Shown here: piece by piece, positions 2 through 57,962 of the stretch | Layout: each line of letters begins with the position of its first letter | How positions within the stretch are numbered: the first letter of the stretch is position 1 | Assembly (NCBI GenBank): GCA_965232895.1 | Contig: OZ247430.1 | Coordinates: 387,388-451,387, forward strand | DNA length: 64,000 bases | Direction: 5' to 3' | Source of the DNA: Dehalococcoidia bacterium | Lineage (GTDB): Bacteria; Chloroflexota; Dehalococcoidia; Lucifugimonadales; UBA3495 | The notes under the pieces: generated by a model | What the model saw: the letters and a program-made list of their open reading frames with translations, nothing else | The model's database searches: none | What the model was told of the DNA's origin: nothing | Position numbers and translations under genes: made by a program

Positions 2-1639
2 AGCAAGATCTTCGGGATCGTGGGCTCGTCTTTCCTGGACGTTCTGGACCCGCTTTACGACCGCGACGACATGGAGTTCGTGGGGGTGCGGCACGAGCAG
101 GGCGCGGCGTTGATGGCGGACGGCTACAGCCGCATTGCCGGCGCCCCTTCCGTGTGCCTGGTGACCAACGGGCCGGGCGTGCTGAACCTGACCTACGGCA
201 TCGGGTCGGCCTACGTGGCCCACTCGCCGGTGGTGGTGCTGGCGCCCTCGGCGTCGCGGGACCATCAGCACCTGGATTCGACGCAGGAATTCGACCAGGT
301 AGCGCTGTTCGAGCCGATCACCAAGGCGAGCTTCTCCATCAACAAGATCGAACGTCTGCCGGACGCGCTGCGACAGGCGTTCCGGATCGCCACGTCGGGC
401 AAGATGGGACCGGTATTGGTGGACATTCCGCGTGACCTGCTGCCCGGCGCCGAGGTGGACATCGACCTGATGGCTCCGACCGCGTACCGCACCGGACAGG
501 GGCATTCGCGGGGAGACCGTGCGCAGGTGGAGGCGGCGGCTCAGGAGATACTGACGGCAAAGCGGCCGGTCATCGTAGCCGGCGGGGGCGTCGAATGGAG
601 CCTGGCGGACGCGGCCGTGGCAAGGCTATCTGAGCTGACGGGCGCGCCAATCGTAACCTCCTACGGGCGAGCGGACGCGGTGCCCAACGACCATCCCAAC
701 TACCTGGGTCACCTGGGTCGGCTGGGAGCGCAGGAAGCCATCGACGCCGTGCGCAATGCTGACGTGATCGTGGCGGCGGGAACCCGGCTGGGTCAGTCCA
801 CAACGTTCTTCGACCACCGATACGTACCCGCCGACGCGCGCATCGTGCACATTGAGATTGACCCCAAGGAGATCGGGCGCATTTACCCGATTTCGGTTGG
901 CGTCGAAGGCGACGTGGGCGCCGTGGTGGACGAGATCAACGGCATCGTGGCGGCGGCGGAACTCCGGCCGGACCCCGAATGGACGAGGCGAGTGGCCGGC
1001 TGGAACGCCGCGCGGGCCGCCCGCTTGCAAGATGAAGGAACGCTCACCGGCGATTACATCAAACCGCAGCGGGTGTACGCCGAGTTGCGGAAGGTTATGC
1101 CACGGGATGCAATCGTCGCGCTGGACGCTGGGCTGGCCCCGAACTTCGGTCAGGACCGGCTGAACTATTACCAGCCGCGCAGCCTGATTATGGCGTTGGA
1201 CCTGGGCGGGTTGGGGTTCAGCTTCCCGGCGTCGATTGGAGCGAACTTTGCGGCTCCGGAACGGCCGGTGGTGAACTTCAACGGCGACGGCGGGTTCCTC
1301 TTCAACGCGCAGGAGTTCGAGACGGCGGTGCGCTACGGATTGAAGAACATATCGGTCGTGATGAACAACGACTGCTGGGGATCGGAGAAGGCGTACCAGA
1401 AGTACGCGTTCAACGAGCGGTACGTGGGCGCCGACACGGTGAACCCCCGGTTCGACAAGTACGCGGAACTCTTCGGCGGCGTCGGATTTTATGTCGACCG
1501 GCCGGAGGACATCGCCGACGCCTTTGCGCAGGCGCTGGCGGTGGACGGGCCGAGCATCATCGAGATACCCACGGACCCGGACGAGATGCCCCGGCCGGCG
1601 CGGCTGGCCGAGGTGCAGTCTCCGAGCGCCGGCGGATAG
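2..1639 (+). CDS. Thiamine-diphosphate-dependent enzyme (acetolactate-synthase-like), 5' end outside window
   Basis: Frame stays open to position 2 (SKIFGIVGSSFLD...). TPP-binding motif GDGGF-x24-NN (NGDGGFLFNAQEFETAVRYGLKNISVVMNND). N-terminal Pyr-domain pattern GVRHEQGAALMADGY..TNGPG. Confidence 0.85.
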   Translation, partial: SKIFGIVGSSFLDVLDPLYDRDDMEFVGVRHEQGAALMADGYSRIAGAPSVCLVTNGPGVLNLTYGIGSAYVAHSPVVVLAPSASRDHQHLDSTQEFDQVALFEPITKASFSINKIERLPDALRQAFRIATSGKMGPVLVDIPRDLLPGAEVDIDLMAPTAYRTGQGHSRGDRAQVEAAAQEILTAKRPVIVAGGGVEWSLADAAVARLSELTGAPIVTSYGRADAVPNDHPNYLGHLGRLGAQEAIDAVRNADVIVAAGTRLGQSTTFFDHRYVPADARIVHIEIDPKEIGRIYPISVGVEGDVGAVVDEINGIVAAAELRPDPEWTRRVAGWNAARAARLQDEGTLTGDYIKPQRVYAELRKVMPRDAIVALDAGLAPNFGQDRLNYYQPRSLIMALDLGGLGFSFPASIGANFAAPERPVVNFNGDGGFLFNAQEFETAVRYGLKNISVVMNNDCWGSEKAYQKYAFNERYVGADTVNPRFDKYAELFGGVGFYVDRPEDIADAFAQALAVDGPSIIEIPTDPDEMPRPARLAEVQSPSAGG

Positions 1640-2300: not shown

Positions 2301-3431
2301 ATGAGCGACCAAACAGCGGACGTAGTCGTCATCGGCGGAGGAGCGGCGGGTTGCGCGGCCGCCTACTACCTGGCGGCCAACGGGGTGAAAGCCACCATCA
2401 TCGAACGGGAGGGCGTGGCCAGCCACGCTTCGGGATACAACGCCGGCGGGCTCAATCCTTTGGAAGGGCACGGTTGGCCGGATCCTCTTATGCCGATGGC
2501 CCTGCAATCCTTTGCGCTGCACAAGGAATTGTGGGCCGCTCTGCCGGCGGAGACGGGCATCGACTACAACGGCCGGATCATGTCAATCCTCAAGGTCGCC
2601 CTGGACCCCGAGGACCTGGACGACCTGCGGGCTACATTGGAAACCTTCAACAGCGCGCCGGAACCGGGGTTCTCTGCGGAGTGGCTGGAGCGTGAGGACG
2701 TGCTGGCCCTGGAACCGCGCATCACCCCCGAGGTCATCGCCGGGATCAGGGCGGTGGGCAACGGGGCATTGGACGGGCTGGAGTTCACCCAGGCGCTGGC
2801 CGCGGGGGCAGAGAAACTGGGCGCGACGGTGGTGGCCGGCAGCGCGGTGGGGTTCCGTTTGGGCAACGGCAAGGTGGAGGCGGTGGTAACCAACGACGGC
2901 GAAATCTCCTGTGGCGCGGTGCTGATCGCGGCCGGTCCGTGGTGCCGTACCGCCGAGCAATGGCTGGACATCGCGATACCGGTCGACCCGCTGAAAGGGC
3001 AGATCATCCGCGTACGGCCGGACGGCCCCGGCTTGGACTACGAGTTGATCGGTGGCGGCAGTTCGATGTACGCGAAGCCCGACGGGCTGATCTGGTGCGG
3101 GGCGACCGAAGAGGAAGTGGGTTTCGATCTGTCACTAACCGACGAGGCGAGGAACGACATCATGCGCCGGGCGACTCGGTTGATGCCGGCTCTGAGCAGC
3201 GCGGAACAAGTGCTGCACACAGCGTGCCTGCGGCCGGTTACGCCGGACTGGCTGCCCATCGTGGGACAGGCCCCGGGTTGGGACAACGTGTACATCTGCG
3301 CCGGCGGGCAGAAGAAGGGCATCCTGCTGGGGCCAGCTATGGGGAAGGGAATTGCAGAGATAGTGGCGTCAGGAAACACCCGGATCAGCCTGGAAGGATG
3401 TGATCCAGGACGTTTTGGCAGCGCCCAATAA
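2301..3431 (+). CDS. FAD-dependent oxidoreductase (DAO / glycine-sarcosine oxidase-like)
   Basis: N-terminal dinucleotide-binding fold VVVIGGGAAGCAAAYYLA. 376 aa, a length typical of the DAO family. Confidence 0.8.
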   Translation: MSDQTADVVVIGGGAAGCAAAYYLAANGVKATIIEREGVASHASGYNAGGLNPLEGHGWPDPLMPMALQSFALHKELWAALPAETGIDYNGRIMSILKVALDPEDLDDLRATLETFNSAPEPGFSAEWLEREDVLALEPRITPEVIAGIRAVGNGALDGLEFTQALAAGAEKLGATVVAGSAVGFRLGNGKVEAVVTNDGEISCGAVLIAAGPWCRTAEQWLDIAIPVDPLKGQIIRVRPDGPGLDYELIGGGSSMYAKPDGLIWCGATEEEVGFDLSLTDEARNDIMRRATRLMPALSSAEQVLHTACLRPVTPDWLPIVGQAPGWDNVYICAGGQKKGILLGPAMGKGIAEIVASGNTRISLEGCDPGRFGSAQ

Positions 3432-54855: not shown

Positions 54856-55929
54856 CTAATCTGCGGGTACGGCGACCTCGCTGCCGATGGCCTCGTAGGC
54901 CCATTCGAGCAGGTCCACGGTCTCATCCCAACCGATGCAGGAATCGGTAATGGAGATGCCGTATTCGAGGTCCGACGGATCTCCGCCGAGCTTCTGTGCG
55001 CCGGGATGGATATTGCTCTCGAGCATGACGCCGATGAGATCGGAGTTGCCGGCCATTCGCTGCTGCAGCACGTCGCGGAAAGCGATGTGCTGGCGGGTGT
55101 GGTCCTTGTTGGAATTGCCGTGGCTGCAATCCACCACTATTGGCGAAGGCGCGCCCGATTTGCGGAGAGCGTCAGCGGCGGCAGAGATGGAACGGGCATC
55201 GAAGTTGGTTCCGCTGCGCCCGCCGCGCATGACCAGGTGGCAGTTGGGATTGCCGCGGGTCTCGACAATGGAGGCCTGGCCGTCGTGGTCGATGCCCAGG
55301 AAAGCCTGAGGGGTGCCGGCAGCGACGAGGGCGTCCACAGCGGTCTGGGGGTCGCCGTCAGTGCCATTCTTGAAACCGACGGGCATGGACAGGCCGGAAG
55401 CCATCTGGCGGTGGATCTGGCTCTCAGTGGTGCGCGCGCCGATGGCGGCCCAGGTTACGAGGTCGGCGACGTACTGTGGCACGATTGGGTCGAGGAATTC
55501 GGTGGCGGAACTCAGTCCGGTTTCAGCGATCTCCATGAGGAGTTTGCGAGCGCGGTGGAGGCCGTCTTCAATCTGGTAGGTGTCGTTGAGGTTGGGGTCG
55601 TAAATGAGGCCCTTCCAACCGACGGTGGTGCGCGGCTTCTCGAAGTACACGCGCATGACGATCATGATGCGGTCGCTGAGCCGGTCGGCTAGCGGCTTGA
55701 GACGCGCCGCGTAGTCCAGTGCGCCCGAATGGTCGTGAATGGAGCAGGGGCCAACGATGACGGCAAAGCGCTCGTCTTCGCCGTTGAGCACGTTCTCGAG
55801 TTGTCGCCGGCTTTCGAGCACGACCTCTTCTGCCCTGGTGGTAAGGGGAATGCGGGCCTCCAGTTCGGAAGGCCGGACCAGCGCGTTGTTACTCATCACG
55901 TTCACGTCTTTTGCCGGTGAGATTGCCAT
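54856..55929 (-). CDS. aroG: 3-deoxy-7-phosphoheptulonate (DAHP) synthase, class I
   Basis: VIVGPCSIHD and KPRTTVGWKGLIYDP signatures. GGAGG lies 9 nt upstream of ATG 55929. Confidence 0.9.
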   Translation of the reverse strand: MAISPAKDVNVMSNNALVRPSELEARIPLTTRAEEVVLESRRQLENVLNGEDERFAVIVGPCSIHDHSGALDYAARLKPLADRLSDRIMIVMRVYFEKPRTTVGWKGLIYDPNLNDTYQIEDGLHRARKLLMEIAETGLSSATEFLDPIVPQYVADLVTWAAIGARTTESQIHRQMASGLSMPVGFKNGTDGDPQTAVDALVAAGTPQAFLGIDHDGQASIVETRGNPNCHLVMRGGRSGTNFDARSISAAADALRKSGAPSPIVVDCSHGNSNKDHTRQHIAFRDVLQQRMAGNSDLIGVMLESNIHPGAQKLGGDPSDLEYGISITDSCIGWDETVDLLEWAYEAIGSEVAVPAD

Positions 55930-55975
55930 CTTTTTGTCCTCCTGACGGTGCCGGATGCAAGGGGCCGATGTTACC

Positions 55976-56012
55976 AACAAAAAGGACTTCAGCCTCCGTC
56001 CGGCTGAAGTCC
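55976..56012 (-). terminator. Intrinsic terminator immediately upstream of aroG (candidate attenuator)
   Basis: Minus strand: GGACUUCAGCC-GGACGGA-GGCUGAAGUCC-UUUUGUU. 11-bp perfect stem, 47 nt upstream of the aroG ATG. Confidence 0.75.
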
Positions 56013-56037
56013 TGCCAAAGTGGTTGTCACCAATTTC

Positions 56038-56142
56038 TTATCGGGCTTCCCATGCCGGGTTTACGCTGGCCGTGTTGCGGTAAGCGTAAAAGTAAAATGG
56101 GCGATAATACCCGGGGACGATTTGGCGGCAGGCGGTACTCAT
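56038..56142 (-). CDS. Candidate leader peptide, Tyr/Phe-rich (34 codons)
   Basis: ATG 56142 ... TAA 56038 encodes MSTACRQIVPGYYRPFYFYAYRNTASVNPAWEAR. It starts 10 nt after a -10-like hexamer and ends 25 nt before the terminator stem. Confidence 0.5.
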   Translation of the reverse strand: MSTACRQIVPGYYRPFYFYAYRNTASVNPAWEAR

Positions 56143-56152
56143 TTTGACGAAA

Positions 56153-56181
56153 ATGCTACTCCCGTCATATTGCGTTGTCAA
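56153..56181 (-). promoter_or_regulatory. Sigma70-like promoter candidate (TTGACA-17-TAGCAT)
   Basis: Minus strand: TTGACA (56181-76), 17-nt spacer, TAGCAT (56158-53). The spacing to the ATG implies a leaderless or near-leaderless transcript. Confidence 0.5.
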
Positions 56182-56243
56182 CGGCGGGAAGGCCCTATTT
56201 CGCAAATTGCTGGTGAAACCGTACCCGTGCGGCACGATACGAA

Positions 56244-57071
56244 CTATTGCGACCGTCCCGCGAGTTCAGCCACGACGGCGGCCCCGCGGTCAGCGGCTTG
56301 CTCGTCGGGACCATCGGACAGCGCGCGCACCAACAAACTGCCGACCACCGCCGCATCTGCCCTCTCGCCAACGTTCAGCACGTGCTCGCGGCTGGAGATG
56401 CCGAAGCCGACCGTGATCGGGAGGTCTGTACGCTGGCGGACCCGGTCGACCAGGTCCAGGCCGCGGCCGGACAACTCGGAACGAGCCCCGGTGATCCCCA
56501 CCACGCTGGTGCAATAGACGAAACCGCCGCCCAGCGCGACCGACCGTTCGATGCTCTCGTCGGTGCTGGTGGGAGCGAGCAGCGGGATCAGGCGCACTCC
56601 GCAGGGATCGAGTTCGGACACAAACGCCTCAGCCTCCGAGCTCGGCAGGTCAACGATGATCAGGCCATCGACGGTGGCCTCGGAACAGGCCGCGGCAAAT
56701 TCCTTCAGTCCGAAGGACATGACCGGGTTGTAGTACCCCATCAGGATGAGCGGGGTGTCGCCGACCCGAGGGCGGAGCGCAGCCGCAGTATCCAGGCAGT
56801 CCCGAGCGGTGACGCCGTTTTGCAAGGCCACGAAACTGGAGGCCTGGATCACGGGCCCCTCGCCGATTGGATCGCTGAACGGTATCCCCAGTTCTATGGC
56901 ATCGGCGCCGGCTTCCACCAGTCGCGGGACTACGTCCAGGGCCGCATCCTTATACGGATGACCTACGGTGACGAAGACCACGAGGCCGGGCCGGTCCTCA
57001 GCCTTGATGGCAGCGAACTTGGCGGCGATACGGTCAGGACGGGTTGCAGTCGAAATCGACATGGGCGGCAC
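56244..57071 (-). CDS. trpA: Tryptophan synthase alpha chain
   Basis: GADAIELGIPFSDPIGEGPVIQ, the TrpA signature. The start could be GTG 57071 or ATG 57062. No trpB adjacent. Confidence 0.9.
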   Translation of the reverse strand: MPPMSISTATRPDRIAAKFAAIKAEDRPGLVVFVTVGHPYKDAALDVVPRLVEAGADAIELGIPFSDPIGEGPVIQASSFVALQNGVTARDCLDTAAALRPRVGDTPLILMGYYNPVMSFGLKEFAAACSEATVDGLIIVDLPSSEAEAFVSELDPCGVRLIPLLAPTSTDESIERSVALGGGFVYCTSVVGITGARSELSGRGLDLVDRVRQRTDLPITVGFGISSREHVLNVGERADAAVVGSLLVRALSDGPDEQAADRGAAVVAELAGRSQ

Positions 57072-57194
57072 TCGGGGAAGTTCGGATTACAACTAGACTA
57101 TCCTACGGGCCGGCGGGTGTCCAGACAGCGCGGACGAACGTTCGGCCGCAGCGATACCGGATCAATCGCCTGCGGACTGTTGACACTCACCAAC

Positions 57195-57962
57195 CTACAG
57201 GCCGAACCATGTGCTGAGCACGGCCACCAGGTTCTGGGCGGCGTGCACGGCGATGCACGGCCACAGCGAGCCGGTGCGTTGGTACAGGAAACCCAACAGC
57301 AGGCCGGTGACGAACACGGGCAGCAGCAAGGCGGGAGCGAGGTGGAGCGCGGAGAACACGGCCGCCGACACGATCAGGGCTGGCGCGAATCCCCAGCGGT
57401 TGATGAGGCCGCGCAGGATGAATCCGCGGAAGAACACCTCCTCGGCAATTGGCGTCCAGACCGCCAGGGCCACGGCGCTGAATACGACCCAACCTCCGGG
57501 CAGCAGCAGTCCGTCCGGCAGCTCGGGAGGCATCAGGAAGTCCCAACCCAAGGTAAGCGCGGCCATGGTGTAAACCTGGGCGAACCCGAGGCTGCCAATC
57601 AACGCGGCTACCACCAGCAGCGTGGTGATTAGGCGCGAAGTGCGAGGTCTGGTGAACCCGACCAGGGCCCACGGAGGCGGCCAGGCGCGGATGGCGAGGA
57701 GCCATACCAGAACGACCTGGAGCACTCCCAGGACGGTGGCGGAAATCACGGCGGCCACGGCGAGGGGGATCAGCAAGGCCAGAGACGCCACCAGCGCCGC
57801 AGAGGGCACAAGCACCATCAACCCGAGAGCGGGCTGCCAGATACCCCACTTGAGAGCATCGGATTGAACGGTAGCATCCGCAGACACTGCCTGGCATCCA
57901 GGACATTCCGGAGCGCCGGGCGCAAGCGCGGCGCCGCAATGGGTGCAGAACGATTGCATCAT
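57195..57962 (-). CDS. CPBP-family intramembrane glutamic endopeptidase with an N-terminal zinc ribbon
   Basis: CTHCG..x..CPGC ribbon. CPBP motifs EEVFFRG, FSALH and HAAQN. Start taken at ATG 57962. Confidence 0.8.
   Translation of the reverse strand: MMQSFCTHCGAALAPGAPECPGCQAVSADATVQSDALKWGIWQPALGLMVLVPSAALVASLALLIPLAVAAVISATVLGVLQVVLVWLLAIRAWPPPWALVGFTRPRTSRLITTLLVVAALIGSLGFAQVYTMAALTLGWDFLMPPELPDGLLLPGGWVVFSAVALAVWTPIAEEVFFRGFILRGLINRWGFAPALIVSAAVFSALHLAPALLLPVFVTGLLLGFLYQRTGSLWPCIAVHAAQNLVAVLSTWFGL

Follow-up and report, generated by a model that had tools for sequence, protein, structure and literature searches.

A stretch of 64,000 nucleotides (nt) from a Dehalococcoidia bacterium (GenBank assembly GCA_965232895.1, contig OZ247430.1, positions 387,388 to 451,387), referred to here as the window, contains a short regulatory element directly upstream of a gene for 3-deoxy-7-phosphoheptulonate synthase (DAHP synthase). 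The element is very probably a ribosome-mediated, or leader-peptide, transcription attenuator, which would tune the expression of DAHP synthase to the supply of charged tRNA-Tyr and tRNA-Phe. Its whole length lies on the minus strand, and all coordinates given below are positions in the window. Between the promoter and the gene there is a short open reading frame (ORF) containing codons for end products of the pathway, followed by an intrinsic terminator with no later promoter; an antiterminator shares bases with the terminator and, in computed folds, is freed when a ribosome stalls and covered when it reaches the stop codon. This interpretation was put forward in an original prediction made from the sequence letters, and it is supported by every computational test that was run (conservation, constrained folds, position of the pairing partner and natural deletions). 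The promoter, ATG, ORF, codon run, terminator, hairpin, Shine-Dalgarno (SD) sequence and gene start listed in that prediction are all present on the minus strand where it had placed them. The feature is real, and comparative genomics lends good support to reading it as a classical mechanism that occurs here in a lineage new to it.

Sequence and computation show the parts, how they are conserved and that the two RNA structures exclude each other; from these we infer the transcription start, the translation of the leader, a kinetic choice between the structures and a response to Tyr and Phe. Transcription would start at most about 4 nt away from the leader ATG (56142), and with a start so close to the ATG the leader would be translated without an SD sequence, in the fashion of a leaderless mRNA. 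Where Tyr and Phe are ample, the ribosome would pass codons 12–21, reach the UAA stop at 56040 and cover the segment CCGGC...GAAGCC (56058–56043). Once this strand is covered, the 5' arm of the terminator would pair with its 3' arm and the polymerase would stop at the U-tract around 55982–55975. Where Tyr or Phe is scarce, the ribosome would stall on the TAT, TAC or TTT codons between 56109 and 56080, leaving the naked 3' end of the leader ORF to pair with the 5' arm of the terminator as soon as that arm is transcribed. The antiterminator thus formed would block the terminator, and the polymerase would proceed into the DAHP synthase gene.

The leader ORF (56142–56038) comprises 34 codons and a UAA stop (56040–56038), encodes the peptide MSTACRQIVPGYYRPFYFYAYRNTASVNPAWEAR and is not preceded by an SD sequence. 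Its regulatory codon run, codons 12–21 (56109–56080), reads TAT TAT CGC CCA TTT TAC TTT TAC GCT TAC (Y Y R P F Y F Y A Y). Five Tyr and two Phe codons make up seven of the ten, as originally described, and the segment YYRPFYFY is the sole stretch of eight codons with at least six aromatic residues (Phe, Tyr or Trp) in the six frames of the window. The run had also been called conspicuously AT-rich, which is borne out by its GC content of 44%, where the window as a whole has 63%; among 36-nt segments, only 2.7% are equally AT-rich. For comparison, leaders and terminators were scanned for in the window and in all 80 loci of that scan (L-numbers such as L005, L010 and L017 denote loci of relatives), and a stricter filter kept 47 loci with both leader and terminator, namely the window and 46 relatives. 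Counted over 46 distinct leaders, the runs hold 178 Tyr, 94 Phe and 4 Trp codons. Synonymous choice in the leaders leans to TTT (77%) and TAT (48%), in contrast to the DAHP synthase genes of the same loci with 73% TTC and 68% TAC, and in eight genes of the window the shares of TAT and TTT are 16% and 13%, marking them as codons rare in this genome. The preference for TTT and TAT in the leaders fits selection for slow decoding.

Upstream of the leader lies a sigma-70-type promoter (56181–56153) with 10 of 12 matches to the consensus, in which TTGACA (56181–56176) and TAGCAT (56158–56153) are separated by 17 nt. The surrounding 800-nt region contains two promoter-like sites, as opposed to 0.2 expected from shuffled sequences. 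TTGACA and TAnnAT with the 17-nt spacer are kept in the window and all 18 closest relatives, and a -35/-10 pair ends 6–10 nt 5' of the leader ATG in about 43 of the 47 leader-bearing loci. The gap from the -10 box to the ATG amounts to 10 nt in the window and 6–10 nt in the closest group, where the spacer between the two boxes remains constant at 17. If transcription starts at the usual distance of about 7 nt past the -10 box, the leader probably has a 5' untranslated region (UTR) of 0–4 nt, and of about 3 nt in the window (AAA-AUG). SD-like motifs precede 6 of the 47 leader ATGs, mostly as AGGA inside a TAGGAT -10 box, versus 36 of the 47 DAHP synthase starts. On this promoter geometry, the leader ORF is predicted, with good support, to be leaderless or nearly so.

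The intrinsic terminator (56013–55975) is formed by AGGACUUCAGCC (56013–56002), the 7-nt loop GGACGGA and GGCUGAAGUCCU (55994–55983), followed by UUUUUGUU (55982–55975); the U-tract sequence directly 3' of the stem is TTTTTGTT. It starts 24–25 nt past the leader stop, its U-tract ends 46 nt 5' of the gene ATG, and its folding energy is -22.1 kcal/mol. The original description as a perfect 11-base-pair stem with a 7-nt loop holds as written, with the stem growing to 12 base pairs once the flanking A-U pair is counted. The competing antiterminator (56058–56000) consists of CCGGC (56058–56054) paired with GCCGG (56004–56000), GAAG (56049–56046) with CUUC (56009–56006) and CC (56044–56043) with GG (56012–56011), and it encloses a small hairpin of UGGU (56032–56029) and ACCA (56024–56021). 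A third structure, a leader hairpin labelled 1:2, spans 56090–56060 and pairs UUUACGCU (56090–56083) with AGCGUAAA (56067–56060), with inner pairs between CCG (56080–56078) and CGG (56072–56070). The hairpin originally noted as UUACGCU/AGCGUAA at 56089–56061 is thereby recovered and overlaps the last two Tyr codons. This leader hairpin is separate from the antiterminator, and both form together in folds; an extension of five pairs between CCCAU (56101–56097) and AUGGG (56053–56049) uses one antiterminator base and has 76% of its alignment cells paired. It may be speculated that the hairpin serves as a pause site that synchronizes polymerase and ribosome.

Folding with and without ribosome masking had been proposed as a check of this model. 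Unconstrained and ribosome-masked folds of the complete leader could not discriminate between the two states, with the terminator always contained in the minimum free energy (MFE) structure whichever position the ribosome was given, and they were replaced by folds lacking the 3' arm of the terminator. Under this condition, and with the ribosome placed on codon 12, 17 or 21, the antiterminator drawn by hand in the original prediction comes out as the MFE structure, at -18.1 kcal/mol. With the ribosome at UAA it vanishes: its 5' strand sits in the position of the terminating ribosome, as had been supposed, and the 5' arm of the terminator is essentially free.

The upstream regions of relatives, whose alignment had likewise been suggested, share promoter, ATG, aromatic run and terminator across divergent Dehalococcoidia. 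The layout precedes DAHP synthase in most of approximately 70 genomes of Dehalococcoidia and SAR202, including those with an enzyme of only 55–60% identity. Runs with at least five aromatic codons in eight were found 5' of the gene on the sense strand in 47 of 72 Chloroflexota loci, compared with 7 on the reverse complement and 1 in shuffled sequence. The window and its 18 closest relatives can be aligned over the whole element. Invariant or nearly so in this group are the -35 box, the TA..AT of the -10 box, the ATG (identical in 19 of 19 sequences), TTTTACGCTTACCGC, CGG..GCG, CCGG, GAAGCCC, the terminator arms and the U-tract; the sequence 5' of the -35 box and the spacer 3' of the terminator (95–130 nt in some) are free to vary. 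In more distant Dehalococcoidia and SAR202, with DAHP synthases 52–66% identical, the leader peptides are unrelated except for the Tyr/Phe run, as illustrated by MNELPANIYFGYYFYRTGCEAVG, MINANVFGFYAYYYFTDRHTVGRGLAS, MKITWGGYGYYYYFFTGCQPTGEGLVC and MKTEFYTYYYYFERLESL. Their runs include FGYYFY, YAYYYF, GYGYYYYFF, FYFWTYAYF, FTYYYYF and YYTYYYF, and each of these leaders stands behind a promoter of the form TTGACA/TTGACT-16..18-TAnnnT and ahead of its own G+C-rich terminator. Most Dehalococcoidia relatives with an aromatic leader have a terminator at the same place with a different sequence. The element is mostly absent from Cyanobacterial, Opitutaceae and other non-Chloroflexota homologues retrieved in the same searches.

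Within the alignment of the 19 closest sequences, pairing reaches 100% and 96.5% in the two antiterminator helices in competition with the terminator, and 100% in the terminator itself, where two pairs have changed on both sides. The leader hairpin (56090–56060) has 92.8% of its cells paired and no two-sided changes, and its nucleotides are constant, also where the encoded residues change. In L017, linked changes of A to G in the antiterminator strand, U to C in the shared arm and A to G in the 3' arm of the terminator preserve both alternative helices. L005 has an earlier stop codon and still conserves the nucleotides of the antiterminator strand; the constraint therefore acts on the RNA rather than on the peptide. 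Covariation among these 19 sequences is weakly consistent with the model, and since the counts are low, the structural case is carried by tests across leader clusters. Over the 47 loci, the mean pairing probability of the 5' arm of the terminator is 0.73 for a stalled ribosome, 0.34 when the ribosome occupies the stop codon and 0.53 after dinucleotide shuffling of the spacer, and the stalled value exceeds the shuffled one in 12 of 12 sequence-distinct clusters (Wilcoxon p = 2.4e-4). The pairing partner of this arm usually lies between -18 and +9 nt relative to the stop codon, with 72% of the partner bases inside the footprint of a terminating ribosome (-15 to +13 nt of the stop).

Natural variants connect the leader promoter to the gene. 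In L036 and L056 (both at approximately 2835–3000, where the DAHP synthase match begins at 3001), the promoter TTGACT...TAGTAT and the first five leader codons (ATGAAAATTACCTGGG) run straight into the 5' UTR of the gene, as if the whole attenuator had been deleted naturally, in which case expression would be constitutive. Because these deletions join the promoter directly to the gene, the leader promoter can be regarded as the promoter of the gene. The promoter scan found no promoter-like site between the terminator and the DAHP synthase gene, and the two deletions support the original argument that transcription of the gene must read through the terminator. The leader also stays with the DAHP synthase gene where trpA lies 1.5–2 kb away (L010, L015 and L016) or is absent.

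Three other explanations fit this comparative pattern less well and together account for only a minor share of the probability. The leader could be an independent small gene for a Tyr/Phe-rich protein or a small RNA, with DAHP synthase expressed from a non-consensus promoter or by leakage. Its own promoter, an efficient-looking terminator and a peptide well conserved within the closest group would suit such a gene; across clusters, however, the aromatic run and the RNA pairing are kept and the peptide sequence is not, and the shortened peptide of L005 with its retained nucleotides points the same way. Searches of the leader peptides against Pfam and NCBIfam gave no family match. The missing promoter-like site between terminator and gene, the loss of the ORF in L036 and L056 with the gene still driven from this promoter, and the constant association of the unit with DAHP synthase through changes of neighbourhood further make this explanation very unlikely. 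Alternatively, the leader may act by translational coupling or masking, Rho-dependent polarity or mRNA stability, with the hairpin and U-tract playing a minor part. Precedents lie in the aroR leader of Corynebacterium glutamicum, termed a “translational regulatory leader peptide” in one applied paper (PMC7356990), and in some Actinobacterial leaders from which typical terminators are missing (PMC8079986); a Dehalococcoidia subgroup with a 48-residue ORF (...YRWFYICRRRA), described below, similarly had no terminator detected by the scan. Against this stand a strong G+C-rich stem and U-tract in the right place in the window and the 46 filtered relatives, and an alternative pairing that specifically engages the 5' arm of the terminator. 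Moreover, the SD sequence of the DAHP synthase gene lies 40 nt 3' of the terminator and, in the MFE fold of the window, is unpaired with any conserved element. Control without termination thus appears unlikely.

A switch operated in trans, by uncharged tRNA as in a T-box, by a metabolite riboswitch or by a TRAP- or PyrR-like protein, would make the ORF incidental. Aromatic amino acid genes of Firmicutes are often under T-box or TRAP control, a subject that also figures among the references of PMC1262725, and the leader RNA does contain conserved structured segments. On the other hand, the one feature shared by leaders that are otherwise unrelated is an in-frame Tyr/Phe run after a promoter-adjacent ATG, which models of an RNA ligand do not predict, and the leader shows neither repeated (G/U)AG triplets nor a specifier-loop architecture. 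A cmscan search of positions 55000–57500 on both strands against Rfam, at E values up to 10, yielded no leader family and no T-box, the sole match being a chance small nucleolar RNA elsewhere. T-boxes, riboswitches and known leader families were rejected on the outcome of this permissive scan, and a trans-acting switch is considered extremely unlikely.

Several observations nevertheless weigh against leader-peptide attenuation or against parts of it. With regard to the term leaderless, used in the original prediction, no SD sequence is present, and a distance of 10 nt from the -10 box to the ATG makes a short 5' UTR likely rather than a strictly leaderless start. Predicted leaderless genes are also few in surveyed Chloroflexi, at about 4.7% and in 4 of 12 genomes (PMC3160421). 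In the folds, the terminator is the thermodynamic winner once its 3' arm exists, and the antiterminator is interrupted and weaker (-18.1 versus -22.1 kcal/mol). Because the terminator always prevails in the complete leader, the choice between the structures would have to be kinetic, as in classical attenuators, and the model depends on co-transcriptional kinetics. An anti-antiterminator, in which the 1:2 hairpin competes with the antiterminator, was looked for by folding and such competition was not found. As the hairpin at 56090–56060 misses the antiterminator, a classical anti-antiterminator is lacking and an untranslated leader is predicted to read through. Such competition is a trait of the trp/his subtype and no requirement for the class of leader-peptide attenuators. 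The helices of close relatives are nearly invariant, with four two-sided changes in the antiterminator set and three in the terminator set, and the leaders of L021–L023 and L025 hold only two or three aromatic codons. Finally, the hosts are uncultured and known only from metagenome-assembled genomes, and the case is built on sequence and computation.

Variation around the common layout is found in several groups of loci. L021–L023, L025 and L267 have the same promoter geometry and a terminator within the upstream 230 nt, together with a leader reading MIGPRGHRPRGCWLFTGIFTAG or ...CWQYTGTFTAG..., which has three aromatic codons including one Trp; these leaders could represent a decaying version or one of altered specificity. 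Another Dehalococcoidia subgroup (L207–L211, L214, L217–L220 and L266) carries, 300–340 nt 5' of the gene, the conserved 48-residue ORF mentioned above. It ends in ...F(T/S)F..(D/E)xYRWFY(I/T)CRRRA and stands behind a conserved TATACTTGAGAGA motif. The terminator scan found no canonical terminator in these loci, which may use a different mode of leader control. In L010, approximately 130 nt separate the terminator from the SD sequence and contain three to four tandem copies of CGAACCCTTGACCAG, each with TTGAC (alignment columns 360–440). A genome-wide DNA pattern scan for the conserved core, with 17 specified bases, proved too loose and returned mostly chance matches in unrelated phyla. Among the matches listed for this loose pattern, each Dehalococcoidia contig occurred once, and the DAHP synthase search had already yielded most of these contigs. 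The listed matches gave no evidence of extra copies ahead of other genes, although the gene context of the few new contigs was not checked and the scan was no clean test.

The gene downstream of the leader (55929–54856, ATG at 55929) encodes a class I-alpha, aroFGH-type DAHP synthase of 357 amino acids. Its SD sequence AGGAGG (55943–55938) lies 8 nt 5' of the ATG, and the GGAGGA of this site does not vary among the 19 closest sequences. The protein matches Pfam DAHP_synth_1 (E 1e-84) and the NCBIfam models TIGR00034 aroFGH (471 bits) and NF009395 (496 bits), in each case above the cut-off. Identities to AroF, AroG and AroH of Escherichia coli are 46, 48 and 50%. The earlier label aroG is an arbitrary choice among these three names. 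The NCBIfam subfamilies and the E. coli paralogues point to no particular feedback specificity of the enzyme, as the protein is equidistant from the three paralogues (46–50%) and NF009395 is a broad model. The closest DAHP synthase genes, with 83–95% amino acid identity, come from metagenome-assembled genomes labelled Dehalococcoidia or Chloroflexota, several of them sponge-associated bins.

Read along the minus strand, the neighbourhood consists of a CAAX-type protease, trpA, the leader, DAHP synthase, a GNAT acetyltransferase, a cytidylate-kinase-like protein and a rhomboid, in this order. A terminator-like hairpin (54829–54796), with a 15-base-pair stem followed by AUUUCUUGAU, begins 27 nt past the DAHP synthase stop codon and probably marks the end of the transcription unit. 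Leader and DAHP synthase gene therefore look like one transcription unit, and the GNAT gene downstream is probably outside the control of the attenuator. Another hairpin, of -20 kcal/mol and without a U-tract, is located at 56250–56202 on the minus strand, in the interval that separates the stop codon of trpA (56244) from the promoter of the leader. If transcription from trpA passes this region, the leader ATG would be internal and without an SD sequence on those transcripts, and the attenuator might act differently.

The closest functional precedent is found in C. glutamicum, where a Phe-Tyr-Phe leader peptide, aroR, precedes the DAHP synthase gene aroF, which is transcribed more strongly when ribosomes stall for lack of Phe (Neshat et al., 2014, as described in PMC11802643; see also PMC4046766 and PMC7356990). 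The original prediction knew of no described aromatic-codon attenuator on a DAHP synthase gene driven from a leaderless leader ORF, and the novelty that this implies for aromatic codons ahead of DAHP synthase does not hold in view of aroR. As in the window, a short ORF with Phe and Tyr codons lies directly 5' of the DAHP synthase gene and stalling raises, or here would raise, expression. The two differ in phylum, Actinomycetota there and Chloroflexota here, and in the codon run: aroR has a single F-Y-F triplet and is reported to respond to Phe and not to Tyr (PMC11802643), whereas the runs described here are longer and dominated by Tyr, in the window as in the combined leaders. The window leader and aroR are treated as analogous and not homologous, as homology between leaders so short and divergent would probably escape detection.

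The enterobacterial attenuators pheL-pheA, trpL-trpEDCBA and hisL share with the window a codon run, a stop codon by the antiterminator strand and a terminator that cannot coexist with the antiterminator. Their leaders (Rfam Phe_leader, Trp_leader and His_leader) have an SD sequence and a real 5' UTR, in contrast to the SD-less ATG that abuts the promoter here, and their 1:2 hairpin competes with the 2:3 structure, whereas the conserved upstream hairpin of the window spares the antiterminator. In addition, the target here is the first common step of the pathway and not a terminal branch. With regard to the start of the leader, the novelty implied for a leaderless leader ORF does not hold, since such leader peptides are widespread among Actinobacteria (PMC8079986; PMC5784534; bioRxiv 10.1101/834739). 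Eight leader peptides in Streptomyces lividans, including trpL, leuL and ilvL, are all reported to be leaderless (PMC8079986), and the same type is represented by the ilvB leader of Corynebacterium diphtheriae (PMC5784534) and the mycobacterial poly-Cys leaderless upstream ORFs (bioRxiv 10.1101/834739). These systems resemble the arrangement predicted for the window, with an SD-less ORF at the 5' end of the transcript, where stalling at codons for the end product controls downstream genes. Their starts were mapped experimentally, whereas the start proposed here is derived from the 6–10 nt between -10 box and ATG, and none of the cited cases senses Tyr or Phe or controls DAHP synthase.

For Vibrio, the Merino database (cited in PMC1173090) predicts attenuators upstream of aroA(I-alpha, Tyr-sensitive)>tyrA; this is a prediction only, with the type unspecified in that paper. 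Like the window, it places a terminator and antiterminator ahead of a class I-alpha DAHP synthase. In Vibrio species among the loci collected here (L276–L281), Phe-rich short ORFs such as MCKFIFTLCFFMFTP and MGWCKFKFTVCFLLFTS occur 160–250 nt 5' of the homologous DAHP synthase gene and may correspond to the attenuator of that prediction.

Literature searches on attenuators in Chloroflexi or Dehalococcoidia and on Tyr-codon leaders turned up aroR and the Actinobacterial leaders and nothing further. Apparently new are the phylum, the lack of an Rfam, Pfam or NCBIfam family, the long Tyr-dominated runs and the breadth of conservation across an uncultured class. There is a reasonable, slightly better than even case that the window represents an undescribed family of Tyr-dominated, SD-less attenuators across Dehalococcoidia, including marine SAR202 and sponge lineages. 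Such a family would be the first ribosome-mediated attenuator recognised in Chloroflexota and the first led by Tyr, with a two-state design in which ribosome occlusion is the sole control and an anti-antiterminator is dispensed with.

Dehalococcoidia and SAR202 abound in the deep ocean and in sponges, and to our knowledge almost nothing is known about their gene regulation. The concept of attenuation itself is unchanged by the present element, which would not surprise a specialist. Together with aroR of C. glutamicum, it would constitute a second, apparently independent leader peptide on a DAHP synthase gene and thus bears on how often attenuators have been reinvented. A new RNA or leader family entry, for which Rfam has no counterpart, would improve the annotation of these metagenome-assembled genomes. 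For the organisms themselves, the conserved design predicts that transcription and translation are coupled in Dehalococcoidia and SAR202, that SD-less mRNAs are translated from their 5' ends, and that entry into the shikimate pathway would be set by charged tRNA-Tyr and tRNA-Phe and not by a TyrR-like repressor.

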